Below, piece after piece: positions 49,890 through 64,000 of a DNA stretch of 64,000 nt. Positions within the stretch are counted from its first letter, which is position 1. Every line of letters starts with the position of its first letter. Both the position numbers and the translations under genes were made by a program. The notes beneath the pieces are model-generated. The model was not told the DNA's origin and made no database searches. It saw nothing but the letters and a program-made list of their open reading frames with translations. This DNA is from Rubripirellula sp. (GTDB lineage Bacteria; Planctomycetota; Planctomycetia; Pirellulales; Pirellulaceae). The DNA lies in contig OZ244207.1 in the NCBI GenBank assembly GCA_965216875.1, forward strand, positions 6,176,001 to 6,240,000, given 5' to 3'.

Positions 49890-50144
49890 CTAGCGACGCT
49901 TTTTAGCGGCTTTTTTCTTAGCCGTACGCTTCTTAGTAGCTTTCTTCTTGGTAGCTTTCTTCTTAGCTGCTTTCTTTTTAGCAGCCTTCTTCTTAGTCGT
50001 ACGCTTCTTAGCGGCCTTCTTCTTGGTTGCTTTCTTCTTTGCAGCCTTCTTCTTGGTCGCTCGCTTCTTAGTTACTTTCTTCTTAGCGGCCTTCTTTTTG
50101 GTCGCTCGTTTTGTAACTTTCTTCTTCGCTTTTTTCTTGGCCAC
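49890..50144 (-). CDS. Histone H1-like, Lys-rich pentapeptide-repeat protein
   Basis: GGAGG-like RBS before GTG; 84 aa of xxKK(K/R) repeats; own terminator. Confidence 0.8.
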   Translation of the reverse strand: MAKKKAKKKVTKRATKKKAAKKKVTKKRATKKKAAKKKATKKKAAKKRTTKKKAAKKKAAKKKATKKKATKKRTAKKKAAKKRR

Positions 50145-50509
50145 GTTCTTCCTCCGCAAGAAAGGAAACGTTGGCGAGTCCTCGTGACTTTTAAAACGAA
50201 ACGCTTCAGAAGCCACCGGCCACGGCTCACCAACCGTTATTTGTGGTTGAATCTCCGAGCTTCGATGACTCCTTCATTGTCGACATCGGTTTTGCTCATC
50301 CTTTCAACCGTTCAGAAACTGCGCGTAACTTTACGCGCTTCTGTGGATTCCGCAACATCTTTTTTGAAAAAAAGTGCTTGCGTGGAAAAAGTTTTTTGTT
50401 ACGCAGACGCGTTTTTTCACTGCGATTAGTCACTTCTTTGCGCAACACAACGTGCAAAACGTGCGCTATAGACAAGACAAACGCGCATGCGCGCGGTGTT
50501 GGACACTTC

Positions 50510-51310
50510 CTAGTAACGCCAACCACCACGTTGTTGCAGCATCTGAAAATTTGTGATCGCAAGTGACAAAAAAAGTATGCCCATGAACATTTGGTCGTTG
50601 CCAAAACCATACGCGGCAAGCAAACCCGCAGCGATCAAACTGATCCACGTTGCTTGATCGGTGTTACCACCACCAAGTACCACCGCCGATCGACAGATGC
50701 GCCCACCATCAAGCGGCCAAACAGGAACAAGGTTTAACAACCCCCAAAGAACACTTGGCCAAATGTAAAAAATGCTGAACGCAAACAGCCCTGCGTTCTC
50801 GATCGGTTTGCCTTGAACGATCCACTCGATGTTGCCCAAACCAGCCGGCATGAGCTTAAACGCAACGACTTGGTAGTCGCCCATCTTCAGTAAACCGATC
50901 AAGATTGCCGCCGATGCCAGTTGAAATGCCGGTCCAGCAAGCGCAATCCATAGCTCTTGAGACGCGGTCAACTGCGAATAGCTGCGGCCACCACCACCAA
51001 ACGAATCGCGCGGGATCGCCAAACCACCAAAGTGGTACAGCACGATCGATGATTCGATCCCACACATGCGAAAGGCGATCGAGTGGCCAAGTTCGTGGAT
51101 CAAAATCGACACCAGCATGCACAAACCCCAAAGCACATGCAGCGCCGCCAGACCCGGTCCTCGGTCGCCAAGCGAAAACTGAACGAGTTGGATCAATCCG
51201 AACCCAAAAACCAACGCGCCGAGCCAAAAAGACCACGCAACGCGAATCGGAAACCCGAGCAGATTGAAGCGGAGGTCGTAGGGCGACGGGGTCGGTTCTT
51301 GCAGCAACAT
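50510..51310 (-). CDS. Site-2 protease family (peptidase M50)
   Basis: LIHELGH, IALAGP, NLVPVWPLDGG motifs; multiple TMs. Confidence 0.93.
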   Translation of the reverse strand: MLLQEPTPSPYDLRFNLLGFPIRVAWSFWLGALVFGFGLIQLVQFSLGDRGPGLAALHVLWGLCMLVSILIHELGHSIAFRMCGIESSIVLYHFGGLAIPRDSFGGGGRSYSQLTASQELWIALAGPAFQLASAAILIGLLKMGDYQVVAFKLMPAGLGNIEWIVQGKPIENAGLFAFSIFYIWPSVLWGLLNLVPVWPLDGGRICRSAVVLGGGNTDQATWISLIAAGLLAAYGFGNDQMFMGILFLSLAITNFQMLQQRGGWRY

Positions 51311-51468
51311 CGGGTTGGAAAGCTCTGGATCTTTGTTGTCTGTGCCAAGCCGCAGGTCGGCTTGAATCACCGGCGTCGTAAGACCGGCTCCGGACATGAT
51401 GATCCTACGCCGTTATTCTGTCATCGTGGCACGGCGCATGGCTCACCTTTCCTGGCAACCGGATCCGT

Positions 51469-52698
51469 TCATGGCAATCGGAACACAGAATACCTTGAAT
51501 CAGCACCTAGGTTACCAAACGTCTTACCGTACTTCTCCTTCAAGGCACGTACCTTGCGGCGGCTGATCGGATTGTAGGCTAAGTGGATCTTCGTTCGCTT
51601 GCGGCGTTTCTTGGCTCGAGCCAATTGGTCAACGCCAAGATGACCGATTCGATTTCGACGCAAATTCAACTCGACCAGGTTTTCTAGCAGATCACTCTCG
51701 CAAAGTGCTTCGATCCCATCATCGCGTATGCGATTGGATGAAAGATCGAGTTGCCTAAGATGGGGGTAGTGCTGGCACAGCTCCATCAACACATTGCTTG
51801 GACACCTGCCGCCGTAGCTGAGCCGCGATAAGTTGGGCAACGGATCATCAACGTTGAAGACATCGGGATCCGGAAGCGATCGACTTCGGATCATCAGGTC
51901 TTCGAGTTCACGACACGAAGTTCCCGATTGCAGTTTCCGAATCGCATGTTGTCCAAAGACACCCGAAACGTGCAACGTCTTGAGTTGTCGCAAGTTTGGT
52001 GCCTCTGCGAACGCTTGCAACGAATCATCGTATTCGCTGGCGAGCGTTAGCGAACGCAAGCTAGTGAGCTCGCTTGAACCGGCGATGAACTTGCCCACAC
52101 CGTGGTTGTGCCTGATCAACGACAACGATTCGAGTTTGCGGAACGAAGGCTGGTTTGCGATCAGTCGACCGATTTGCTGGGGCAATTCCGATTCGTCAAT
52201 CAACAGCGATCGAAGGTTTCGCAGTCGGCCACAGGCGAACAATCCCTCAAGCTGGCTTTCACGTGCTCGCGTGTTGAGCAGCTTCAATGACGAAAGTTGT
52301 TCGAGGTGTTCGGACTTTTGCAGGTCATCGAACTTGGCGGACGTGTAGCGAAGCACAACCGAACGCACGGGAGAATTGGCAAAGATCTCGTCTTGGAGCT
52401 TCAAGAACTTTGCAACGGAAACTTCAACCTTGTCGATGAACCCGCCGCGAGTCCCAATCACTTTTACGAAGGTCGGCACACTTCCGAAATGCCCATATTG
52501 GCGCAGCAGTTTCAGTTCACGACTTCTTAGCTTGCGGCGTTTCGGATCCCACTTGTCGATGTCGGCAAGCTGAAACTGCAATCGAATCAACTCGCCGCGC
52601 GGATCACCCTGCTCTTCCAGATAGTCGGCAAAAACGAGACGCGCGGCATCTTCGTGCGGGTTCGCGATGATCGCAGCAATGAAGTCGTCAGGTGTCAC
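51469..52698 (-). CDS. TIGR02996 (repeat-companion) domain protein with leucine-rich repeats
   Basis: FIAAIIANPHEDAARLVFADYLEEQGDPRGELIRLQ, RGGF, then LxxLxLxxN repeats; start GTG 52698 or TTG 52734. Confidence 0.9.
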   Translation of the reverse strand: MTPDDFIAAIIANPHEDAARLVFADYLEEQGDPRGELIRLQFQLADIDKWDPKRRKLRSRELKLLRQYGHFGSVPTFVKVIGTRGGFIDKVEVSVAKFLKLQDEIFANSPVRSVVLRYTSAKFDDLQKSEHLEQLSSLKLLNTRARESQLEGLFACGRLRNLRSLLIDESELPQQIGRLIANQPSFRKLESLSLIRHNHGVGKFIAGSSELTSLRSLTLASEYDDSLQAFAEAPNLRQLKTLHVSGVFGQHAIRKLQSGTSCRELEDLMIRSRSLPDPDVFNVDDPLPNLSRLSYGGRCPSNVLMELCQHYPHLRQLDLSSNRIRDDGIEALCESDLLENLVELNLRRNRIGHLGVDQLARAKKRRKRTKIHLAYNPISRRKVRALKEKYGKTFGNLGADSRYSVFRLP

Positions 52699-52717
52699 GT
52701 CGAAACCCCGCGGCTTG

Positions 52718-55012
52718 TTAACCAATCTCGACAAGCGATTTCAAATCGATCACCAACGGTTGGTCGCCGTCGATCGCCAACAATCGTCGTGCGATCTTGG
52801 CTACGACCTCTTGTTCGATCACACGCTGCAGCGGACGAGCCCCAAGCAACGGATCAAAGCCGACAGCCGCAATCCGTTTGACCACGGAATCGTCCCAGAC
52901 CAACGTGACCCGCTTGTCGGTCAGCGTTTCACGTTGCTGAAGTGATTCAAGTTCTTTCTCAACGATCTTTTCGATCACATCGGCTGGCAACGCATCAAAG
53001 GTCACGACTTCGTCGAGTCGGTTCAAGAACTCGGGCCGAAACTCCTGTTCAATGGCTCGTTGCAGTGCGCGATTGTCTTCGCCCGTGAATCCAATCGACG
53101 CGCTGCTTTTGGCGCCCACGTTGCTCGTCATGATGATGATCGAACCACAAAGGGTGGTCGTTCGGCCAAAACGATCGGTCAACCTTCCCTCATCAAGGGC
53201 GGACAACAAACAATCGTGGACTTCGGTCGATGCTTTTTCAAATTCATCCAACAGCAACACCGACATTGGGCGTGCTCGCAATCGCGCAATCCAAGCGGCG
53301 ACCTCACCACTCGGCTCCATCAAGAACCGATCGACGGCGTCCCAACTTCCGTACTCACTCATGTCGAGACGGACGATCGTCTTTTCAAGTAGGTCTGTGT
53401 GGCCGAACAAATAGTCGGCCAAGCTTCGAGCAAGCTGTGTCTTGCCAACTCCTGTTGGACCGCAAAACAACATCGTTGCGACAGGACGACCGGGATCACA
53501 AAGGCCCGCCTTGAGTCGCAAGATCGTATTGGAAGCCGAATCGACAGCGGAATCTTGCCCGATCACCGATTGACGTAGCGAATCGCGAACCGACTCGGCC
53601 GAAAGCGTCACCGAGTCGCGGAGCATCGCTTCAGGCAATCCCGTCAACTTCGTAAAGCGGTCGACAATGTCTCCAACCGCGATCCGCATCTTACGGGTAT
53701 CTTGCTGATCGGCGCCGTTTTGTTGTTGCCAAGTTTGGGTTGATGAATCATCAAGGGTCTGCTGAATCAGATCACCAATCAATTCAACGGTGCCGCGCGG
53801 AGGCGATTGGTACGGCATGAATTGAGCGAACAGTCGCGTCACGGTTTCCGCCGCCGACTCTTCGATCTCGATTCGGTGGTTACGGCCAGCTCCCGAGAGC
53901 ATCGTCTCAGCAATGTCCCGTGTTTGATCATGGGTGAGCGTTGGAACATTGACGATCTGAAAACACTCAACCCAACCCGGTAACAGTCGCCGCGCAGCAT
54001 CAAGTTCTTCGTGAGTCGCTTCGGCGATCACGCGCACTTCGCGTCGACGGATGTAGGGCAACAAAAACGCGGCCAGCGAATCGGTCGGTTGTGAACCACC
54101 GAGGCGCACTAAGTCGACGAGCGATGTGAACGACAGGATTCCGGATATCGACTCCAACTCGGAGATCACTTGTTCAAGCCGCTGCTCCCATTCGCCCAAG
54201 TACTGCATGCCGGCGATCAGGTTCTCGGCCGAAGATTCCCACACCAGGGGCGGCGGAGTGCGATCACCATCGATCTTGGCCTGTTGGCGCGCGTTGGTTT
54301 GATGCAGTTGCGATGCCAAACGCACAACCGTTGATTTTCCACAGCCGGATGGCCCGACCAGAATCAGGCTCGAATCGATCATCCCGCTTAAAACTTGTGC
54401 CACTTCATTGTCGCGATGCTTCAGCGGAGCTGATTTCTGTTTGCGTTGGCGAACATCGATCGGAGAGGCAACGGTCGAAAGCGTTTCGGTGTTGTGCTGT
54501 GGCTTGCGGTCTTCGACGTCGCGCAGCTTGACGCGCACCACGCGCAGTTCCGAATCCGCGGGCGGGGTGGCTGCGAGAAGTTCGCGTGAATCGATCTGTG
54601 CCGTTGCGCCACGAACCGACTCTTCGATCAGTTTCGGCAGTTCGCGAATTGCTGGGCAATGAAAAACAACATCGAAGTCGGTTAGAAAACACTCGACGCT
54701 CTTGTCGACGTAGTGACCCAAGACATACCGAACCGGCAACTTGAGTTCTCGGCTGGCGGGAAACTGTCGGTTTTCGTCACGGTAATAAAGTCGTACGCGA
54801 ACGCTGGTTTCGTTTAGTTCGAACGAGTCGATTCGCGGCCAGTATTGATCGGGCTCGCGCATTCCCTGTTTGCGCAAGTAGTCTCGCACCCAGCTGAATG
54901 CTTCGGACGCAGACGTACCGGCAGCATCCGCGTCGGGTCCGTCAACCACGCGGGCGGTGAAGATGTCTTCGGCGTACTTCGTTACAAGAACGGGAACTTT
55001 TACACTTGTCAT
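52718..55012 (-). CDS. Divergent ClpA/ClpB-type double AAA+ ATPase (copy 3, short)
   Basis: D1 GPSGCGKS; D2 GPTGVGKT, RLDMSEY, LLLDEFEKA, FRPEFLNRLD, GARPL; SIGF loop. Confidence 0.88.
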   Translation of the reverse strand: MTSVKVPVLVTKYAEDIFTARVVDGPDADAAGTSASEAFSWVRDYLRKQGMREPDQYWPRIDSFELNETSVRVRLYYRDENRQFPASRELKLPVRYVLGHYVDKSVECFLTDFDVVFHCPAIRELPKLIEESVRGATAQIDSRELLAATPPADSELRVVRVKLRDVEDRKPQHNTETLSTVASPIDVRQRKQKSAPLKHRDNEVAQVLSGMIDSSLILVGPSGCGKSTVVRLASQLHQTNARQQAKIDGDRTPPPLVWESSAENLIAGMQYLGEWEQRLEQVISELESISGILSFTSLVDLVRLGGSQPTDSLAAFLLPYIRRREVRVIAEATHEELDAARRLLPGWVECFQIVNVPTLTHDQTRDIAETMLSGAGRNHRIEIEESAAETVTRLFAQFMPYQSPPRGTVELIGDLIQQTLDDSSTQTWQQQNGADQQDTRKMRIAVGDIVDRFTKLTGLPEAMLRDSVTLSAESVRDSLRQSVIGQDSAVDSASNTILRLKAGLCDPGRPVATMLFCGPTGVGKTQLARSLADYLFGHTDLLEKTIVRLDMSEYGSWDAVDRFLMEPSGEVAAWIARLRARPMSVLLLDEFEKASTEVHDCLLSALDEGRLTDRFGRTTTLCGSIIIMTSNVGAKSSASIGFTGEDNRALQRAIEQEFRPEFLNRLDEVVTFDALPADVIEKIVEKELESLQQRETLTDKRVTLVWDDSVVKRIAAVGFDPLLGARPLQRVIEQEVVAKIARRLLAIDGDQPLVIDLKSLVEIG

Positions 55013-58000
55013 TTCGTTGCCTCTTTGTGATCGGGCAAGAATTCGACACTACGGCGCGACTGGCGAACCAATTTCATGAGCGCCACCTGGCCCAACGATT
55101 GGCTGACCGCTGCGCCGCTGACCAAGTCGACCAGTGGCCCACCCGATTGAAGCACGCGTCGAATCGGCGAGATTCGTTCAGGCTGTGGCTCGTTCATCCA
55201 GCGTTGGTGTGCATCGTCGTCTGATTCGTTCGCATCGAGCGGTCTTGCACTCACCTCAGCTAACAAAAACTCACCGGTTGGTCGGACGATCAGCCAGCCG
55301 CCGAGCAAATGGTCGATCGTGGCTTTGGCGAGTGCTCCTTGGACGATGTAAAAACAGACATCGCGACTCGCATCCGCAACAAGGTTTTCATCGCCAACCA
55401 TCCATTGGTGAATGATCGACGACACGATGCACGGTTCAACGTACGAATCGACTTCGGGCCATTGCTTTGACCATTCCGACGACGGTCGATGAAACTCGGA
55501 CCGTCCGTACCAACGGATCGACAGCGCCCACCGATGCGACATCCCACGTGCGGAGAGTTGTCCATGCAATCGCCCCATCTCGTTCAAGAACTGATCTCGC
55601 GTTTCGTCCAACTCGCCAGAATCAACATCAACGAGTGAATCCTGCAGGTAGTCCATGATGTCATCGACCGCTTGCAAATCGCGCATGTCGATTGTGCTGT
55701 TTGGTTCGAAGCGTTTTCCAACCATGCTCGATCCTGGAACAGGAACCGGTGTCGATTGCGGCTTCTGCAGCTTTGGTTTCTGCTGAGTCTCGGTCAGTTT
55801 GCGCAGCGTCTGGCGACACTCCAGCAAACTGTCGCGAAGTGTCATCGTTTCAAACTGTTTGGGATCGACGCCTTCGCCGCCGAGTTCGAAACTTAGTGGC
55901 ACGCCTTCGATTTCGTCGGCAATCTCGTCGAGCCACAATTGACTGCGTCGCAGAAGCTCGGTCAGCGGCATGTTGGCGTCAGTCGCAACCGGCTTGGCGT
56001 ATTCGATCGGCTGCCAGCGCGTTTGAACGGATTCGCCATCAAGGTAGAGGCGCAAGATCGTTGGTTGGTCCGTCGGTGTGGACGCGAGAACTTGCGACGC
56101 GGGTCCGACAAGATCACGTTCGATTTGACGCTTAAGCGCGCGAGCCCCCATCGACGGGTCGTAACCTCGCGACGCCGTCCATTTGATGGCCGCTTCGTCC
56201 ACATCGATCAAAACGCTGCGTCGCTGCAAACCGTCTCGTTGAAGCACATCATCCAATTGCATCCAGGCGATCGATTCCATCGTCTCGGTTGACAATCGCT
56301 CAAAGCTCAACACATCGTCGATACGATTGAAGAACTCGGGGCGAAAGAACTCTTGGGCCGCTTTGCGATGAACATCGCCGATGACTTTTTCATCGGTCAC
56401 ATCAGAAAAGCCGCTACCACGCCCGGACTGTCGTGACCCGAGGTTGCTTGTCATCAAGATCAACAGTCCTGACAGATCCACGGTGCGTCCCCGCGCATCA
56501 CTCAGCCGCGCTTCACCAATCGCGTGCAATAGGACATCAAGAACGGTTGGGTGCGCCTTTTCGATCTCGTCTAGCAACAGGACTGCGTGCGGTCGGCGGC
56601 GAACGGCACTGGTCAACATTCCGTCGGGGGCATCGAACGTTCCAATCAAGCGCGACGCGGAAGCCGGAGACGACAATTCGTTCATGTCCAACCGAATCAA
56701 CCCGCCGCTATCGAACATGCATTCAGCAACCGCCTTGGCAAGTTGCGTCTTGCCGACGCCAGTTGGGCCAACCAACAAAAAGGTTCCCAACGGCCGATTG
56801 GTATCATTCATCTGAGCCGCAGCGATCATGATTCGATCAATCAGTTTTTCGACCGCCGCATCCTGCCCAACGACTGACTGGCGAATCGAGCGGTCCATCG
56901 CAACGCGCGTTAACGCTTGACGGCGATCGATCATCGATGGAAGCAAGCCCGAACGCGATTGAAATTCGTTGATCGCCAACTCACGGTTGACCATTCGGCC
57001 CTGGGGGCGGGCGGCGAGTCGGTAAAGCGCCGCAGCCGCCTTGCCTGGCAACACCGAAGATCGATCAAATCGATCGTACAGCGACACGATTTCGGGGATC
57101 ACGTCGGTATCGAAAAACAATTTGCCATTGGCTTCGAGCTTGCGCTGAATGCCGACCAGCGTTTCCATGGTGCGGCGAGTGTCGAGCGCTTCGGTCGGTA
57201 CCACGACCATCCGATCGGCCAAAGTTCGATCACGTTCGCGAAGGATCGCCCAAGCTTCGGGAGTCATTTCAGCGAGAAGACGTACGGGCCGAATATCAAG
57301 TTGAGCGCGCAGCGTGTCGGCGACACACATACTGCTGTCTCTGCACTTGCCTGCCTCGTAAAGCCCAAGCAAGTCATCGAAGTACAAGATGTGATCGTAG
57401 CGATAGGCGTGCTTCAAAATCCCGAGCACACGCTCCTGCCATTGACCCAAGTAGCTCATGCCCGAAATCAAACGCGCGGGCGAAAGATGCCAAACTTGAC
57501 CCCGTGTTGCCGATTTCGATCGCAAGCGCCGACGCCGCACTGCACCTTCGATGCGCGCGGTCTTGCCGCTGCCGGATGGCCCGACCAAAACCACACCTCG
57601 CCGGTCGCCAACTTCCATCAAGTGCATGAGTCGTTGAACGTCGTCGCCCACACTGATCGGATCGCAAAGTTCGTCGATATCGACCCAGTTCAAACAACGT
57701 CCGACCTGGCGCAATTGCGAAGCACCATCCGAGACGTCTTGTCCGCCGAGTAGCGCTCGAAGCGGGTCGACCGCCTTCTTCTGTGCTTTCTGGGCCATCA
57801 CCTCGATCGTGACGTAGTCGACCCAAGCTTTGCCTTCGATGCTGTGGTGTTCCACAGGGTATTCAGGACGATCCTTACGAATCTTGCGAAAGTAGGACTC
57901 GTAGACTTCGGCTGCCCGCGTCTCGATCGATTCGCCTTCTTCAACGTCGAACCACGAGTCGAAAAGCGTGGGTGAAAACACCAGGCGACGTCCATGCCGA

Positions 58001-58299
58001 ATCATGCTGACGAGCAACAACTTGAGGTTGGCGGTGCGATCGCGGAGGTCTAGCGACAATTTGACCAATCGGTCATCCATCATGTCGGCTTCATGCCACT
58101 GCAATAGCTGTTGGTGGTCGCTCTCGCGCGCAAGTGGCGCCAGTTCGACGCGAAGTTTGTTTGTCAGTTTGGCGATGACCTTGCCCAATTCGGTTCCCCG
58201 CATGACGGGCTCAGGGAAAAAGAGTGGGCGCACCGTGATCGGCGGAGTGGTTCCCCGATTGCGGCGTTGCTGGACGTAAATAGGTATGGTGATTTTCAT
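55009..58299 (-). CDS. Divergent ClpA/ClpB-type double AAA+ ATPase (copy 2) with long C-terminal extension
   Basis: D1 GPSGSGKT, ILYFDD, LPGKA; D2 GPTGVGKT, LLLDEIEKAHP, FRPEFFNRID, GARAL; ATGA overlap with copy 3. Confidence 0.88.
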   Translation of the reverse strand: MKITIPIYVQQRRNRGTTPPITVRPLFFPEPVMRGTELGKVIAKLTNKLRVELAPLARESDHQQLLQWHEADMMDDRLVKLSLDLRDRTANLKLLLVSMIRHGRRLVFSPTLFDSWFDVEEGESIETRAAEVYESYFRKIRKDRPEYPVEHHSIEGKAWVDYVTIEVMAQKAQKKAVDPLRALLGGQDVSDGASQLRQVGRCLNWVDIDELCDPISVGDDVQRLMHLMEVGDRRGVVLVGPSGSGKTARIEGAVRRRRLRSKSATRGQVWHLSPARLISGMSYLGQWQERVLGILKHAYRYDHILYFDDLLGLYEAGKCRDSSMCVADTLRAQLDIRPVRLLAEMTPEAWAILRERDRTLADRMVVVPTEALDTRRTMETLVGIQRKLEANGKLFFDTDVIPEIVSLYDRFDRSSVLPGKAAAALYRLAARPQGRMVNRELAINEFQSRSGLLPSMIDRRQALTRVAMDRSIRQSVVGQDAAVEKLIDRIMIAAAQMNDTNRPLGTFLLVGPTGVGKTQLAKAVAECMFDSGGLIRLDMNELSSPASASRLIGTFDAPDGMLTSAVRRRPHAVLLLDEIEKAHPTVLDVLLHAIGEARLSDARGRTVDLSGLLILMTSNLGSRQSGRGSGFSDVTDEKVIGDVHRKAAQEFFRPEFFNRIDDVLSFERLSTETMESIAWMQLDDVLQRDGLQRRSVLIDVDEAAIKWTASRGYDPSMGARALKRQIERDLVGPASQVLASTPTDQPTILRLYLDGESVQTRWQPIEYAKPVATDANMPLTELLRRSQLWLDEIADEIEGVPLSFELGGEGVDPKQFETMTLRDSLLECRQTLRKLTETQQKPKLQKPQSTPVPVPGSSMVGKRFEPNSTIDMRDLQAVDDIMDYLQDSLVDVDSGELDETRDQFLNEMGRLHGQLSARGMSHRWALSIRWYGRSEFHRPSSEWSKQWPEVDSYVEPCIVSSIIHQWMVGDENLVADASRDVCFYIVQGALAKATIDHLLGGWLIVRPTGEFLLAEVSARPLDANESDDDAHQRWMNEPQPERISPIRRVLQSGGPLVDLVSGAAVSQSLGQVALMKLVRQSRRSVEFLPDHKEATK

Positions 58300-58315
58300 G
58301 TTGATCGCGGTCGTG

Positions 58316-61300
58316 TTACAGGGATTCCGCGTCTGTCAAATCGAACGTCTCGTCTCCGTCTCCTTCTGTCTCGTCCAACGCGGCCCACACACGACGCTTG
58401 GTTTCTTCTTCGATTGCGGCGTCGAGCCATCGCCCTTCGCGATCACTCTTGATCGTGTGGGTTGATGACAGCGTGAATTCCGAGACCAACCCCGTATCGA
58501 GGTCGTAATAGCGTCGTGGCGCCGCTGGCATTTGGTAGTCACGCGTCGGCAACCAGTTGGGCGCCACGTAATCGATCGGCGCCCCGGTGTGCTTGCTGAC
58601 CAAGATCGATTCACCGATTTGGTCGGTAATGCTCGACTTTCGAAACGTGTGGACGCCTTCCTCTGTGCTCATCGACAACTCCGCACCTTCACCCCGAAAT
58701 GTCATCATCAACGCCAACGTATTCTCCGGGATCAGGGGAAGCGTGGTCGGGTGCGTCATGAGGTACGCCGCCAAACTTGGCTTGGTATCGGAGGTTTTGT
58801 TCTCTTCCTTCAAGACTTCCAAGTTGTCTCTTTGCGTTGCGATTCGAAACGAAGCGTCTTCGGTCCATCCGTCACAATAGACTTTGGGATCCGCCTTGGA
58901 CTCTTTTTCGCGGCGAAGCAGCGCATGGACCTGCAGTTTCCACTCGCGCCGAGAGGCAACGTACGTGTAACCAGTCAGGAGGCGTTGAGCGACGTGAAAG
59001 TTCGGGCCTGACAGCACCAACGAGATCTGCTGGCGGCCCATCGGCTTTTCGCTATTGAGTTCGCATAGCAACCGCCACATTCGCTCTTGTAGGTCTTCGG
59101 TACGCTTTTTGGTCTCTTCAAGATCAATCTCCTCGTCAAGGTAATACTTCACCATGAAGTCGGATTCGATCGCGTTGATGCGCTCGGTGAGCCGTGCGAT
59201 GTCGCGCAGTCGGTTGCGTTTTTGTTCCAACTGCACAGCCAACGGGCCATGCGCAACTTTGTCGCGACGCTTTTCGTCGCGGACTTTGCGGCGCATCCGC
59301 TTGATCTTGCGCGAAATCAGAGTGCATTCGTTGCGGAGTTTGCGAACCGCGCTGCAGCGAGCAAGCGACTGACTGCGACGACGCAGCGTCAGCACATCGG
59401 TCAACATCGACCAAACGTTTTCGGATGCGCAATTGTCGTTGTGCCCCCGAATTGACTCGATCGAGACATTCACCTGTTCGTTTTGTTCGCTCGATTCCGA
59501 TAGTTGGACACTTGCTTCCAGCCTGTCAGAGCGCTTGTTGCAAATCGCTTCCGCTAACGGGACAAGGACCGTCTTTTCAATTTCGCGCGCAAGCGGACGA
59601 GCACCATACTTGGCTTGATAGCCATCGCTCGACAGTTGGCGGACGGCGTCCTCGCTGACGCTCAATCCACGACCTCGTTCCTTCCAACCGCTTCGACGTT
59701 GCAACTCGTCCAGACGCAATTTCGCGATCTGTTGAACGATCGCTGGCGACAACGGGTCGTACGTCAGAATTCGGTCAATGCGATTGAACATTTCGGGGCG
59801 CAAGAATTCACGCACCTTCTTTTCGAAGTGTCCGCGGTAGCGCTGCACCGATTGTGTGTCGGCGAGTCCAAGTGGGACTTCACGATACGACTCGACGCCC
59901 AGGTTGCTTGTCATGAGGACAATTGAATTGCGAAAGTCGGCGACGCGTCCATGACCATCGGTCAATCGGCCTTCACCGAGCACCTGAAGCAATAAGTCAA
60001 AGACCGAGGGATGCGCCTTTTCGAATTCATCCAAGAGCACCAGCGAAAAAGGTTGCGCGCGTACCGCCGAGGTCAAGATACCCTCAGGGTGCATCGCATC
60101 ACCAATCAATCGGCCGACGGCAGCCGGCGTCGACATTTCCGACATGTCAATCCGCACCAGCCGCGACACATCGCTGTAAATCAGCCGTGCCAGCGCCTTG
60201 GCGGTTTCGGTCTTGCCAACGCCTGTTGGTCCGATCAACAACAAGGAAGCCAGGGGACGATCGCCACGCGACAGGTCGGCCGCGAGCGTTGCAATCATGT
60301 CCACCAAGGTCTTGATGACCGATGGTTGGCCCAAAACCTGTGAGGCGAGTTTCTCTTCGATCTCATTTAGGTCGGGTCGCACACTGTCATCGATCAAGAA
60401 GGGAGGCAACCCGGTTTGGCGCCCGAATGACTCGATCACCCGCGCGACATCCAACGTGTCGCCGGGCTTAAGTTCGCTCATCGTTGCGTGAAAGAACGAG
60501 AGTGGACGGCCTGGCGAGGCGGCGTCCGTTCGAAAGCGTCGATGAAGTCGGTCGAGTACCTGCAGCGCGGACGGTTCGACTTCGGGAAGTCTTGAGTCTT
60601 GCACACGTGGCTTGACTCGCTTTCGTTTCTTTCGTTTCTTTGCAATTTCGGCCGTGATGTTCACTGGTCGCCACGCCGCCGCGGAATCGAGCAAGATCGA
60701 GCGCGTTTGATCGGGCGCCGGCTCTTCGATGCGCATCGTCGTCAATGCGGCGAGCAACCGTGGCTCGACGCGTTGCATTCTTGACAACTGTTCCGGCGTG
60801 CATTCGATCACCGCGCGCAGCGATCCACTCGCGAGTCGGGGTGCCAACAAGGAACCGCATCCACCGCTACCACGAAGCCTCCCCGACTCACTGAGTTCAA
60901 CCAGGTTCCCAAGGTGAACCACGGACGGAAAACGCGACGCCTCTTCGGCCATTTTTAAACATTGCTGCTGCCACATCCCGAATCCACTTTGGCCCGAAAT
61001 GAGCCTCGATCCGTCGGTCGCCCAGCATTGGATCGCTTGCATGCCAAATTCATCACGCTGGCGCACCCATTGGTGAAACACGGCCGTCTTGCCAACGCCC
61101 GAAGGTCCGACCAGCAAGACACTGCGCGCTCGGCTGCTCGAAAGAAGCGAAGCCAATTGCTGGACTTCGTCGTCGCGGTGGTAGGCAGGTCGCAAAGTGT
61201 CGCGGCGCAACCGAGTCGCAACCGTGCCGAGCGTTGGCGTCTTGCTTTTCGGTTTTTCGTTGGCTTTTCGCTTTTTCTCGCTGGGCGTCAGCAGGTCGAC

Positions 61301-61798
61301 CTTGAAACGGTGCTGCTCAAGCGAAGCAGTCTGGCTTTTTCCGAGCGCGGCCAATCCCATGAGCTCCCAAGAGCCTTGTCGGCGCAGCGCCGATCGAATC
61401 TGTTCCTGGACCAGACTTTCCACGTCCGTCTTTGGCGTCGAGACGATGGTCAGTGCGAGGGACGGAACGTAAGTCACGATCAAACTGGCGTCTTGTTCCC
61501 AAACGAAGGTGTCGAAGTCGACATCAATCGGTTCGCGCCAAGCATCCGATCGCTTGGGCGGCGCGATCTCGACGGTCACCCTTTCTTGGCGCGCAGGACC
61601 GCGGACAAGTAATTCGACCAGCTCGCCACCGTCACTGCCTTTGCAGGTATCGATGACATACCGACGAACCAAACGGTGCGCGTTGTCTGGATTTCCGGCG
61701 GCGATCGCAATCTCAGGAAAACCAATCGGACGAACGAGAGTGAGTTCACCATGAGGAACGATGACCAAAGGCAAATCGATGTTGATCGACTGGGGCAT
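58316..61798 (-). CDS. Divergent ClpA/ClpB-type double AAA+ ATPase (copy 1) with release-factor-like C-terminal domain
   Basis: D1 GPSGVGKT; D2 GPTGVGKTE, RIDMSE, VLLDEFEKAHP, LRPEMFNRID, YGARPL; coiled coil then PCRF-like motifs. Confidence 0.88.
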   Translation of the reverse strand: MPQSINIDLPLVIVPHGELTLVRPIGFPEIAIAAGNPDNAHRLVRRYVIDTCKGSDGGELVELLVRGPARQERVTVEIAPPKRSDAWREPIDVDFDTFVWEQDASLIVTYVPSLALTIVSTPKTDVESLVQEQIRSALRRQGSWELMGLAALGKSQTASLEQHRFKVDLLTPSEKKRKANEKPKSKTPTLGTVATRLRRDTLRPAYHRDDEVQQLASLLSSSRARSVLLVGPSGVGKTAVFHQWVRQRDEFGMQAIQCWATDGSRLISGQSGFGMWQQQCLKMAEEASRFPSVVHLGNLVELSESGRLRGSGGCGSLLAPRLASGSLRAVIECTPEQLSRMQRVEPRLLAALTTMRIEEPAPDQTRSILLDSAAAWRPVNITAEIAKKRKKRKRVKPRVQDSRLPEVEPSALQVLDRLHRRFRTDAASPGRPLSFFHATMSELKPGDTLDVARVIESFGRQTGLPPFLIDDSVRPDLNEIEEKLASQVLGQPSVIKTLVDMIATLAADLSRGDRPLASLLLIGPTGVGKTETAKALARLIYSDVSRLVRIDMSEMSTPAAVGRLIGDAMHPEGILTSAVRAQPFSLVLLDEFEKAHPSVFDLLLQVLGEGRLTDGHGRVADFRNSIVLMTSNLGVESYREVPLGLADTQSVQRYRGHFEKKVREFLRPEMFNRIDRILTYDPLSPAIVQQIAKLRLDELQRRSGWKERGRGLSVSEDAVRQLSSDGYQAKYGARPLAREIEKTVLVPLAEAICNKRSDRLEASVQLSESSEQNEQVNVSIESIRGHNDNCASENVWSMLTDVLTLRRRSQSLARCSAVRKLRNECTLISRKIKRMRRKVRDEKRRDKVAHGPLAVQLEQKRNRLRDIARLTERINAIESDFMVKYYLDEEIDLEETKKRTEDLQERMWRLLCELNSEKPMGRQQISLVLSGPNFHVAQRLLTGYTYVASRREWKLQVHALLRREKESKADPKVYCDGWTEDASFRIATQRDNLEVLKEENKTSDTKPSLAAYLMTHPTTLPLIPENTLALMMTFRGEGAELSMSTEEGVHTFRKSSITDQIGESILVSKHTGAPIDYVAPNWLPTRDYQMPAAPRRYYDLDTGLVSEFTLSSTHTIKSDREGRWLDAAIEEETKRRVWAALDETEGDGDETFDLTDAESL

Positions 61799-61978: not shown

Positions 61979-64000
61979 TCAATCGCGCAAGTTATCGATC
62001 AAGAACGCCCAAAGATCGGCGTACTCATCAATGCTCTTGCTGACCGGCGTTCCCGCACCATGGCCGGCTCGTGTTTCGATGCGAATCAACGTTGGATTAT
62101 TGCATGATTGCGCGGCCTGTAGGGCAGCGGCAAACTTGAAACTGTGGCCAGGCACGACACGGTCGTCACGGTCTGCGGTCGTCACCAGTGTGGCCGGATA
62201 GCAAGTACCCGGTTTCAGATTGTGGAGCGGTGAATAGGACAACAAGTTGTCAATCTGATCCTCTTCGTCGCTACTGCCGTACTCGGTCACCCACGCCCAC
62301 CCGATGGTGAATTTGTGATAGCGAAGCATGTCCATCACGCCGACCGCAGGCAAACTCGCCCCAAACAACTCAGGTCGCTGTGTGATCGCCGCGCCGATCA
62401 GCAAGCCGCCATTGCTGCGGCCCGAGATGGCGAGTTTCTTGGGCTTGGTGTAACCCTCGGCGATCAGGTGTTCGGCAGCCGCAAAAAAGTCATCAAAGAC
62501 ATTTTGCTTCTTCAATCGCATTCCATCCTCGTGCCACTGACGACCGTACTCGCCGCCCCCACGCAGGTTCGCAACGGCATAGATGCCTCCACTTTCGATC
62601 CAACCAGCTTTGGCTGGCGAAAACGAGGGCGTGATTGAGATATTGAACCCACCGTACGCGTAAAGCAACGTGCGATTGTTCCCGTCAAGCTTCGAGTCTT
62701 TGTGACGCGTCACGATGATAGGAACCTTCGTTCCATCTTTGCTCTCGCAGAACAATTGTTCTGTCACATAATCGGAAACTTCAAAGTCGACTTTCGGTTG
62801 CCGCCAGAGATCCGCTTGATTGTTGCCAAGATCAAGTCGATAAATCGAACTCGGTGTGACATAGTTTGTGAAGCTAAAGAACGTTTCCTCGGCATCTTGT
62901 CGGCCACCAAAACCGCTGACACTGCCGACCCCGGGAAGCTCGAGTTCATCGATCAGGTTTCCGCCGAGTCCGTGCCGCGTCACCTTTCCTCGCGCATCTT
63001 TCAACGACCGACAGTAGAAGGTGTCGCCGAAAAGACTGACCGATTCGACAACATCATCCGATTCGGCAATCACACTTTTCCAGGCGTCACGGTCGGAGTT
63101 GCCAACTTCAACGGCGATCAGGCGACGCTTGGGCGCTTCGTTGTCGGTAAGGAAATAGAGCGTGTCGTCTCGAGAAGCGATCCATTCATAGTCCGCATCA
63201 AAGCCGGTGATAATCGGTTCGACTTCAGAATTAGGATCTCGCAAATCTTTGACGAAGATCTGCGACTTCGGTTCACTTCCCTTCCAGTTGTAAATCACCA
63301 AGTAACGACCGTCGTCAGTCACCGCTGGCGAGAACCCCCACTTGGGATGATCAGGACGTTGTAGAACCAGTGTGTCGTCGCTTTGGTCGTCACCGATTTT
63401 GTGGAAGTAGAGTTTTTGGTTTTCGTTGGTTCCGGTAAGCAACTCCCCTTCGGCAGGTGCTTCGTACCGTCCGTAAAAGAACCCACTGCCATCGGGCATC
63501 CAAGCAATTCCGCTGAATTTGACCCACTTGATTTCGTCTTCCAGGTCTTTGCCAGTGGCAACGTCACGAACTTTCCATGTTCGCCAATCGCTGCCGCCAT
63601 CAGCTAATCCGTACGCCAACAGTTTCCCGTCGTCACTTGGCGTCGCGCCCGCCAATGCGATCGTGCCATCCTTACTTAACGTGTTTGGGTCGATCAACAC
63701 TTCGCGTTCGGCATCAAGCGACGATGCCTTGTAAAAAACGCTTTGGTTTTGCAACCCGTCGTTGTGCGAATAGAAGTAGGTGTCGCCGCGACGACGCGGC
63801 AATCCGAATCGCTCGTAGTTCCAAAGTTGTTCCAAACGTTTGTGCATTGACTCGCGTTCAGGAATCGAATGCAAGTACTTGTCCGTGACTTCGTTCTGTG
63901 CCTTGACCCACGCAGCCGTTTCATCGCTTTCGGTGTCTTCCAGCCAACGGTAGGGATCTTTGACGACGCGCCCGTGATAGTCATCCTTTACGTCAACGGT
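61979..64000 (-). CDS. Prolyl oligopeptidase (peptidase S9A), 5'-partial
   Basis: DPYRWLED, YGGF, NLRGGGEYG, GRSNGG (Ser), DDRV (Asp), AGHG (His); frame open to window edge. Confidence 0.96.
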   Translation of the reverse strand, partial: TVDVKDDYHGRVVKDPYRWLEDTESDETAAWVKAQNEVTDKYLHSIPERESMHKRLEQLWNYERFGLPRRRGDTYFYSHNDGLQNQSVFYKASSLDAEREVLIDPNTLSKDGTIALAGATPSDDGKLLAYGLADGGSDWRTWKVRDVATGKDLEDEIKWVKFSGIAWMPDGSGFFYGRYEAPAEGELLTGTNENQKLYFHKIGDDQSDDTLVLQRPDHPKWGFSPAVTDDGRYLVIYNWKGSEPKSQIFVKDLRDPNSEVEPIITGFDADYEWIASRDDTLYFLTDNEAPKRRLIAVEVGNSDRDAWKSVIAESDDVVESVSLFGDTFYCRSLKDARGKVTRHGLGGNLIDELELPGVGSVSGFGGRQDAEETFFSFTNYVTPSSIYRLDLGNNQADLWRQPKVDFEVSDYVTEQLFCESKDGTKVPIIVTRHKDSKLDGNNRTLLYAYGGFNISITPSFSPAKAGWIESGGIYAVANLRGGGEYGRQWHEDGMRLKKQNVFDDFFAAAEHLIAEGYTKPKKLAISGRSNGGLLIGAAITQRPELFGASLPAVGVMDMLRYHKFTIGWAWVTEYGSSDEEDQIDNLLSYSPLHNLKPGTCYPATLVTTADRDDRVVPGHSFKFAAALQAAQSCNNPTLIRIETRAGHGAGTPVSKSIDEYADLWAFLIDNLRD

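Follow-up and report, generated by a model that had tools for sequence, protein, structure and literature searches.

In a 64,000-nucleotide stretch of the genome of Rubripirellula sp. (assembly GCA_965216875.1, contig OZ244207.1, positions 6,176,001 to 6,240,000; hereafter the window, whose numbering is used unless stated otherwise), three adjacent genes encode paralogous Clp-type ATPases, here termed subunits A, B, and C. Together they probably form a three-subunit member of an undescribed Clp-type superfamily whose proteins carry dead release-factor arms. The original prediction, made from the letters of the window without database searches, had described the genes as a candidate hetero-oligomeric double-AAA+ machine with a fourth, leucine-rich repeat (LRR) protein as its partner; its observation is confirmed, its interpretation is partly right, and the finding is larger than it proposed.

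The three consecutive minus-strand genes and the fourth open reading frame (ORF) were verified in the window sequence, including the 16-bp gap between A and B and the ATGA overlap of B and C. Subunit A (58316..61798, minus strand, 1160 aa) is built from a tandem HicB-like N-domain, a dead D1 module, an intact D2 module, and a tail derived from release factor 2 (RF2) that is without the GGQ domain. Subunit B (55009..58299, minus strand, 1096 aa) has the same order, i.e., HicB-like N-domain, dead D1, and intact D2, followed by a more degenerate release-factor-like tail, and subunit C (52718..55012, minus strand, 764 aa), with an IGF loop, ends after D2 with no tail at all. All three match Pfam AAA_2 and ClpB_D2-small, and their pairwise identities are 33.9% over 554 aa (A/B), 27.4% over 799 aa (A/C), and 31.8% over 557 aa (B/C). 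The strings quoted in the original prediction (RLIGDAMHPEG, RLIGTFDAPDG, RFLMEPSGE, VHLGN, YFDD, LSFTS) all occur in the translations. What it described is correct as far as it was stated, but the N-terminal 170 aa and the C-terminal 320–370 aa of A and B were left out of it, and it thus overlooked the release-factor-derived tails and the HicB-like N-domains, which shift the reading towards translation.

The tail of A (about residues 790–1140; 58379..59431, minus strand) comprises release factor domains 1 and 2/4, with the PCRF fold, while domain 3, which bears GGQ, is deleted and the SPF loop is lost. When a profile of 29 A tails was compared with the PDB, 37 rows were returned, the first 21 of which are all RF2 (E 2e-7 to 3e-4), and the tail model superposes on Bacillus subtilis RF2 (6szs_z; VIA fold search) with a Z of 14.1 and a root-mean-square deviation (rmsd) of 7.4 Å over 265 aligned residues. 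When it is aligned with RF1 of the same genome, the match breaks off at the hinge that precedes domain 3 and resumes behind this domain. The RF2 segments ExGxH, the MY/W helix, and the C-terminal R-x-Y...D-x-RTG are kept; in both A and B the SPF stop-codon loop is shortened, with the motif absent at its position, and GGQ is absent. Compared with RF2 (PrfB) itself, then, the tail is without domain 3, GGQ, and SPF, and is fused behind an ATPase. For the tail of B (about residues 775–1090; 55030..55977, minus strand), a degenerate RF2-like body, the evidence is weaker than for A: its profile finds the RF2 of its own genome at E 1.6e-6 with Z=1 and aligns by hhalign with a sister-family tail (probability 93.7) and with the A tail (probability 83), and against the PDB it gives no release-factor match. 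The profiles and models together show that both tails are to be regarded as descendants of RF2 that have lost GGQ and the stop-codon loop, more faintly in the case of B. Single-sequence Pfam scans returned nothing useful, either for the 29 A tails or for the N- and C-terminal regions of the three proteins, and these parts are revealed only by profiles and folds; the A tail has no match among plasmids.

As for the motor core, D1 of A (about residues 186–462; 60413..61243, minus strand) keeps Walker A and has lost the Walker B glutamate and the arginine fingers, and D2 (about residues 466–783; 59450..60403, minus strand) has Walker A and B, sensor 1, arginine finger, and sensor 2 intact. The same division runs through the 49 A, 43 B, and 39 C sequences (131 in total) in which motifs were counted, with 9 canonical Clp proteins as controls. 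The D1 Walker A lysine is kept in 46 A sequences (the other 3 have gaps), 43 B, and 39 C, the D1 Walker B glutamate in 0/131 (0/49, 0/43, and 0/39) as opposed to 9/9 canonical proteins, and the D1 RR finger in 0/131, again versus 9/9. In D2, the Walker A lysine, the Walker B Asp-Glu, the sensor 1 asparagine, the arginine finger, and the sensor 2 arginine are invariant in 131/131. Motifs and model together show a D1 that should be able to bind but not to hydrolyze ATP and a D2 that has every catalytic motif. The "complementary degeneration" once proposed for the three copies does not hold, because a dead D1 is common to the three types and to the single-gene sister family D introduced below, which has the same pattern, while D2 is intact in all; the degeneration is therefore shared and older than the triplication.

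Two loops set the core apart from canonical Clp proteins. The D2 pore loop is mostly 14 residues long versus 19 in canonical proteins (5 residues short in A of the window, which has no GYVG), and GYVG or GYIG occurs in 0/191 family sequences, compared with a GYVG-type loop in 8/9 canonical ones, so that the earlier statement that the D2 modules are without GYVG but keep Walker A/B and sensor 2 is borne out. The D1 pore aromatic is kept in 39/43 B and 39/39 C sequences and is shifted by one place in A (42/49). After sensor 1, where ClpC has FGF and ClpB-type proteins have no such loop, the parsed sequences carry G[FL] in A 31/31, B 40/42, C 36/38, D 39/39, and E 16/16 (family E is described below), and in 2/6 canonical proteins, both of ClpC type; the stricter pattern hydrophobic-G-[FLI] is found in A 23/31, B 26/42, and C 32/38, and A of the window has LGL at this position. 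An IGF/LGF-type loop after sensor 1 is the ClpP-docking motif, and the G[FL] loop of these proteins may serve in ClpP docking.

The occurrence of A, B, and C as a set was followed with profiles of each in 301 evenly drawn genomes of the phylum; scoring was limited to 2–3 candidates in each genome, which makes the counts lower bounds, and related genomes are not independent. The three profiles match the same 20 genomes, with one copy of each type and no genome having only one or two types, and in 17 of the 20 the genes are adjacent on one contig in the order A-B-C. Two genomes first taken to hold a lone subunit, G336 and G346, turned out to have a canonical Clp gene and an E-type gene, respectively. 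A contig scan with A retained 80 loci, 33 of which hold an A orthologue: 21 have A-B-C in order, 4 have A-B cut by the contig end, 3 have A-B without C, 1 has A with a 136-aa remnant of B, and 4 have A alone. By their record labels, these loci belong to Planctomycetota, Verrucomicrobiota, Acidobacteriota, and three metagenome-assembled genomes (MAGs) labeled as Bacillota groups. In eight loci the incomplete set is not due to a contig end, and a whole-genome search located the absent genes elsewhere in 7/8 of these genomes, the fragmented MAG G367 being the exception. Genes of the set may indeed lie apart, as in G340 and G334, each a single contig with A, B, and C at three distant loci, and where they are adjacent, 4-bp overlaps are common. 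Beyond close kin, the set has no conserved neighbor genes. Thus, of the neighborhood survey suggested with the original prediction, the co-occurrence of the paralogues is confirmed and that of TIGR02996 genes is not, and its claim of a conserved three-paralogue set, probably one machine, is upheld by the one-each occurrence in 20/301 genomes and by the separate clades described next. Two side observations belong to these loci: in G366 an unlinked C gene (C14:35105-39226) adjoins the gene of a canonical 872-aa Clp ATPase, and in three MAG loci B, C, or A is split into two ORFs (L005:2862-6126, L006:16804-19174, L022:9236-12840), by frameshift error or a real break.

A tree of 64 D1-D2 cores places A, B, and C in clades of their own that extend across phyla (support 0.998, 0.998, and 1.0) and that group together with support 0.898. 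On these sequences, A, B, and C are regarded as three old subunit types and not as a recent tandem repeat. They join the single-gene families D and E in one clade against the 9 canonical outgroups with support 0.98; the trees were made with FastTree, and long branches may inflate the support of the ABCD and ABCD(E) clades (0.942, 0.98). One long-branch ORF (L047), classed as D in the first tree, was excluded from the motif-count set, and two A sequences were lost from the second tree as no motif was parsed in them.

Family D (~1120 aa) makes up most of the other 47 loci retained by the contig scan, 3/47 being canonical or doubtful (family loci: L037, most of L039-L084, and L134-L141). Its members are labeled as Alpha-, Beta-, and Gammaproteobacteria, Bacteroidota, Acidobacteriota, Actinomycetes, and others, have no conserved neighbors, and combine an N-terminal hydrophobic/helical region with a dead-D1 Clp core and a GGQ-less RF2 tail; Pfam PCRF matches 9/9 of the D tails tested, 7 of them over the cut-off. 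Family E (19–20 sequences; loci L142, L143, L153-L170, L172, and L178) has a HEAT-like N-region or none, and its tail keeps all four RF2 domains: it aligns unbroken with RF2 residues 12–333 (E 6e-54 against RF2 and 2e-30 against RF1, Z=1), and a basic loop takes the place of GGQ with no change in length. When 18 tails of each family were aligned jointly, the occupancy of domain 3 came to 98% for E, 30% for D, 13% for B, and 3% for A, and none of the four has GGQ or SPF at the expected position. The N-terminal module is thus variable among the sister families, being HicB-like, HEAT-like, membrane/helical, or absent. The group is large, as the best 150 matches at 50% clustering nearly all cover the whole A profile, and it includes cultured bacteria, with the database label just "AAA family ATPase". 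D/E genes occur in 33/301 genomes, none of which is among the 20 triad genomes when two candidates per genome are scored; mutual exclusion is not a rule, since G144 and G334 hold both.

The sequences of the sister families suggest a decay series starting from a whole RF2. The simplest history would be that a whole RF2 gene became fused behind a dead-D1 Clp ATPase, then lost catalysis and decoding, and later domain 3; as the last step, again in the simplest account, one branch would have been triplicated under a HicB-like N-domain.

This N-domain occupies residues 1–170 of A (61289..61798, minus strand). The full-length model of A (pLDDT 89.8, pTM 0.62; pLDDT 91.5 for the N-domain modeled alone) gives two beta-beta-beta-alpha-alpha-beta units with the fold of the HicB antitoxin N-domain. 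In the VIA fold search the first seven rows are HicB-type, the best with a Z of 8.6, which by itself is near the level of chance best matches (rmsd 2.9 Å, 82 aligned residues); by sequence, the match to 2yzt at E 0.095 agrees weakly with HicB, and Foldseek finds nothing at E ≤ 0.001, with HicB 6g1n at rank 6 (E 0.2). The three subunits have N-domains that are homologous to each other (hhalign probabilities 96.0 for B against A, 96.9 for C against A, and 89.5), orthologous and conserved among the triads, and not hypervariable. No credible match of the B and C profiles was found among PDB sequences, Clp_N matches none of the three N-termini while it does match a canonical control (L076), and among 8000 candidates there is no stand-alone relative of 86–350 aa; the A N-domain has no match among phages. 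The two repeats are not detectable against each other by hhalign (probability <4), and their recognition follows the order of secondary structures. The likeness to the HicB antitoxin is one of a partial RNase H (beta-beta-beta-alpha) fold; it differs from HicB in having two copies per chain, 5–12% identity, and no DNA-binding domain seen. Neither a HicA gene nor a DNA-binding C-domain was seen among 44 same-strand neighbors scanned, in which ORFs of <80 aa were not called and a short HicA could escape. After the HicB rows, the A N-domain (window 61289-61798, first half) matches the GGQ-domain region of PrfH and RF1 (Z 5.5 and 5.2), and further double-stranded RNA-binding domains (dsRBDs) and ribosome hibernation factors (Z about 4). 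HicB binds dsRBD-fold proteins, and from these folds it is conceivable that a stand-alone GGQ-domain or hibernation protein is a client of the N-domain.

Do the three subunits form one particle? We consider it probable that A, B, and C co-assemble as a heteromer, helped by contacts between their HicB-like N-domains, a view carried mainly by the co-occurrence of the genes. Complex prediction of the N-domain trio gave a score of 0.58, with 0.00 for the best of three controls, contacts at least 87% alike between runs, and a partner pLDDT of at least 82; the signal vanished when B was replaced. In the benchmark, whose counts are made rough by the use of own alignments, the score mark was reached by 116/157 solved complexes and 2/215 mismatches, and at 0.60 or under by only 18/157 and both mismatches; the run covers the hetero N-domains only. 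Of the hetero-oligomeric ATPase originally proposed, the ring of paralogues is favored by the one-each co-occurrence and the weak trio score, and the LRR partner and the complementary degeneration fall away. That A, B, and C would instead act in one pathway as separate homohexamers, or as two plus one, in sequence, is improbable. Each subunit does have the full set of D2 cis and trans motifs and could fire alone, the sister families D and E are single genes, and the triad genes can lie far apart, but the strict one-each co-occurrence, the translational coupling suggested by the common 4-bp overlaps, and the weak trio signal that is lost with B all speak for joint assembly.

Our best reading, held a little short of even confidence, is that A, B, and C form a hetero-ring that docks on ribosomes by means of the dead RF2 arm. 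From the domain order, the state of D1 and D2, the RF2 descent of the tails, and the occurrence as a set, we infer the docking, its target, and a partnership with ClpP as follows. The three would be subunits of one Clp-type double ring, most simply (ABC)2, in which D1 would serve as a scaffold with bound nucleotide, D2 as the engine, and the HicB-like N-domains as mediators of subunit contacts. By analogy, the RF2 arm of A would enter the vacant A site of a stalled or idle ribosome and bind there whatever the codon, without peptide release, a step that we judge evenly balanced, and docking would bring the ring to the factor-binding face of the ribosome. More doubtful is what would follow: D2 hydrolysis may remove a ribosome-bound protein or help the subunits to part, with D2 resembling a lever or short-stroke remodeler more than a threading motor of the GYVG type, and the GF loops might hand the client to ClpP. 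Since one ribosome takes one arm, the decay of the B arm and the absence of an arm in C would find an explanation.

Precedents exist for the separate elements, as far as the excerpts of the papers cited here and below state. Dom34 without its catalytic glutamine parts ribosomal subunits (PMC6514570), SPF is not needed when RF2 acts in ArfA rescue (PMC8012679), and Pex1/Pex6 is a hetero-ring with a dead D1, an active D2, and D2 pore aromatics that are kept (PMC9265785). In general terms, we tentatively see a widespread unnamed Clp-type superfamily that uses a dead release factor as a ribosome-targeting arm, resembling in its logic Dom34 combined with a splitting or extracting ATPase; one branch would be a three-subunit heterohexamer with only one well-preserved arm and with HicB-like domains that fix the subunit order, a type of assembly for which the literature searched gives no example among Clp ATPases.

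Several points weigh against the ribosome-docking ring. Ribosome binding, assembly, and ATPase activity of A, B, and C are predictions drawn from sequences and models. The set is patchy, C being detected in 12/61 genomes of the family, and in one genome (G367, locus L027), a MAG of >900 contigs, A is accompanied by the 136-aa B remnant and no C was found, possibly by decay of the set or by a gap in the MAG. The trio score is weak, and HicB oligomers are already among solved structures. No translation or rescue gene is found among conserved neighbors of the loci, and the triad does not replace GGQ-domain factors, as most genomes with or without it have four RF-1-domain genes. The D2 is active by its motifs yet is without the aromatic pore loop that Pex1/Pex6 keeps, which makes force transmission hard to account for. 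Finally, the plant chloroplast protein PrfB3, an RF2 paralogue without SPF and GGQ, binds and protects an mRNA end and is not a release factor (PMC5897788). A replacement of ArfB/PrfH-like factors by the triad was considered and dropped, given that RF-1-domain gene counts are normal with or without it; in most family genomes the four genes (PF00472) are RF1, RF2, and two short stand-alone ones.

The PrfB3 precedent is also the starting point of an unlikely alternative, in which the same hetero-ring would use its dead RF2 body off the ribosome as an RNA- or ribonucleoprotein-binding module. The target of its remodeling would be an mRNA-protein or a toxin-antitoxin complex, and dsRBD-fold proteins would be bound by the HicB-like domains. 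Consistent with this are the loss of SPF and GGQ, tails that are less acidic than RF1 and RF2 (median 0 to −3.3 versus −5.2 and −6.6 per 100 aa), and, as a lead only, the PrfB3 cluster among Atlas feature matches for the tail of homologue P0005 (0.81). However, family E holds all four release-factor domains at native spacing, needless for an mRNA binder, and among the ORFs compared no conserved RNA or target gene is seen beside the loci. The patchy distribution (20/301 and 12/61), the changing N-terminal module among sister families, and the retained GF loop would also fit a decoy-sensor in biological conflict, whose RF2 body and HicB-like domains would be baits either for HicA-type RNases or for proteins of phages or toxins directed against release factors, capture leading to ClpP-dependent destruction. 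We regard this as a slim prospect: there is one copy per genome, no effector domain, and a neighborhood of ordinary and variable genes, and the N-domains are orthologous and conserved. For the same reasons the anti-invader role raised by the original prediction finds little support, and the comparison with PADLOC 2.0 that it suggested yields matches (PDC-M37B, DolB, IetA) confined to the AAA domains, with none for the LRR and M50 genes described below. The ribosome-docking hetero-ring stays our preferred reading.

The gene next to C was correctly recognized at the outset as a TIGR02996-LRR gene: domain search gives a TIGR02996 match of 63.3 bits (cut-off 29.05) together with LRR matches. The ORF spans 51469-52734 (421 aa) if read from a TTG, and judged by the sequence the GTG at 52698, which lies 19 bp beyond the stop codon of C, is the more likely start, because the TIGR02996 model then begins at residue 4; the gene is thus placed at 51469..52698 (minus strand, 409 aa). 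That its product is a sensor or adaptor of the machine, as first modeled, is very improbable, and as a family trait this model is largely refuted. The gene lies on the same strand, close behind C, and may be co-transcribed with it in this genome. Elsewhere, 45 distinct loci have at least 1.3 kb downstream of C, 43 of them have a same-strand ORF there, and 0/43 match TIGR02996 under conditions in which the window gene does; a search of the first 84 loci for a homologue of the fourth protein was negative, and an N-domain profile made from 10 paralogues of its own genome detects nothing in loci L001-L178. Genome G321, from the same genus, has the arrangement oligopeptidase-A-B-C-M50, in which C and M50 are direct neighbors. 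Its own genome has 15 TIGR02996-like ORFs, the closest paralogue being at 4412079-4413344 of that genome (37% over 411 aa). Read from these sequences, the LRR gene is a lineage-specific insertion and not a conserved part of the system.

The M50 peptidase gene (50510..51397, minus strand) follows the LRR gene in the window and stands directly after C in close relatives, including L005, L006, L036, L095, and L100. On the other side, a prolyl oligopeptidase gene (61979..64000, minus strand), cut by the window end, is upstream of A in close relatives only. The A, B, and C genes have a G+C content of 0.55–0.57 and a third-position value (GC3) of 0.61–0.65, similar to their flanks. The same genome encodes two canonical Clp ATPases and two clpP genes, so that the triad comes on top of the usual complement. 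Two genes downstream of the LRR gene, at window 49890-50216 (minus strand), there is a 108-aa Lys/Ala-rich histone-H1-like ORF with KKKAAKKK repeats. The RF2 gene of the genome (6268307-6271867 region, L086) lies ~32 kb from the triad, and the two are ~30 kb apart in G321, a proximity that is probably plain synteny.

Placed among known systems, the triad shares with ClpA, ClpC, and ClpB (and ClpV, ClpG, ClpK) the D1-D2 double AAA+ core, with ClpC/ClpA/ClpB as the best Foldseek rows and a VIA Z of 24.7 to the second nucleotide-binding domain (NBD2) of ClpB, as well as the D2 catalytic motifs and, at the position of the ClpC FGF, the G[FL] loop. It differs from the Clp/Hsp100 proteins in the HicB-like alpha/beta domain that stands in place of Clp_N, the dead D1, the short D2 loop, the RF2-derived tail, and the presence of three subunit types, and its best score of 308 bits compares with curated NCBIfam cut-offs of 885–1900 for ClpA/ClpB/ClpV/ClpG/ClpK (ClpA 993, ClpB 1232, ClpV 885). 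PrfB3 and Dom34/Pelota are likewise release-factor relatives without the catalytic motif (PMC5897788, PMC6514570), but they are stand-alone eukaryotic or archaeal proteins with no Clp fusion, and Dom34 has the unrelated aeRF1 fold. With Pex1/Pex6, an analogy only, the likeness lies in paralogous subunits of one ring, a D1 with Walker A only, and an active D2 (PMC9265785); Pex has two subunit types, belongs to the classic AAA clade, and has its aromatics in D2, whereas the triad keeps an aromatic in D1 and has lost it in D2.

In agreement with the original prediction, which knew of no characterization of this arrangement, a literature search, mostly of listings and abstract starts, did not turn up a published account of a Clp-release-factor fusion, of a three-paralogue Clp set, or of TIGR02996. 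The text at hand of the release-factor survey PMC6514570 has the terms "clp", "pcrf", and "hicb" 0 times, although its supplements may bear on this, and where Clp comes up in the excerpts of PMC8195603 and PMC7159879, the context is a different one. ClpB_D2-small and PCRF are paired in an automatic Atlas cluster of 62 members; the architecture is therefore visible in domain tables but unnamed.

According to the excerpt of a 2021 review (PMC8012679), the mechanism of subunit splitting before bacterial ribosome-associated quality control was then unknown. If the arm of A binds ribosomes, the system would be a new bacterial route of ribosome rescue or quality control, in which A-site sensing is coupled to an ATP-driven remodeler and perhaps to ClpP. 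To our knowledge, the splitting factors described since that review do not use a release-factor body. Even without the ribosome reading, the triad ring, with its dead D1, its D2 without the pore loop, and its series of decaying release factors, would be a test case for how AAA+ proteins transmit force and how asymmetry evolves in their rings.

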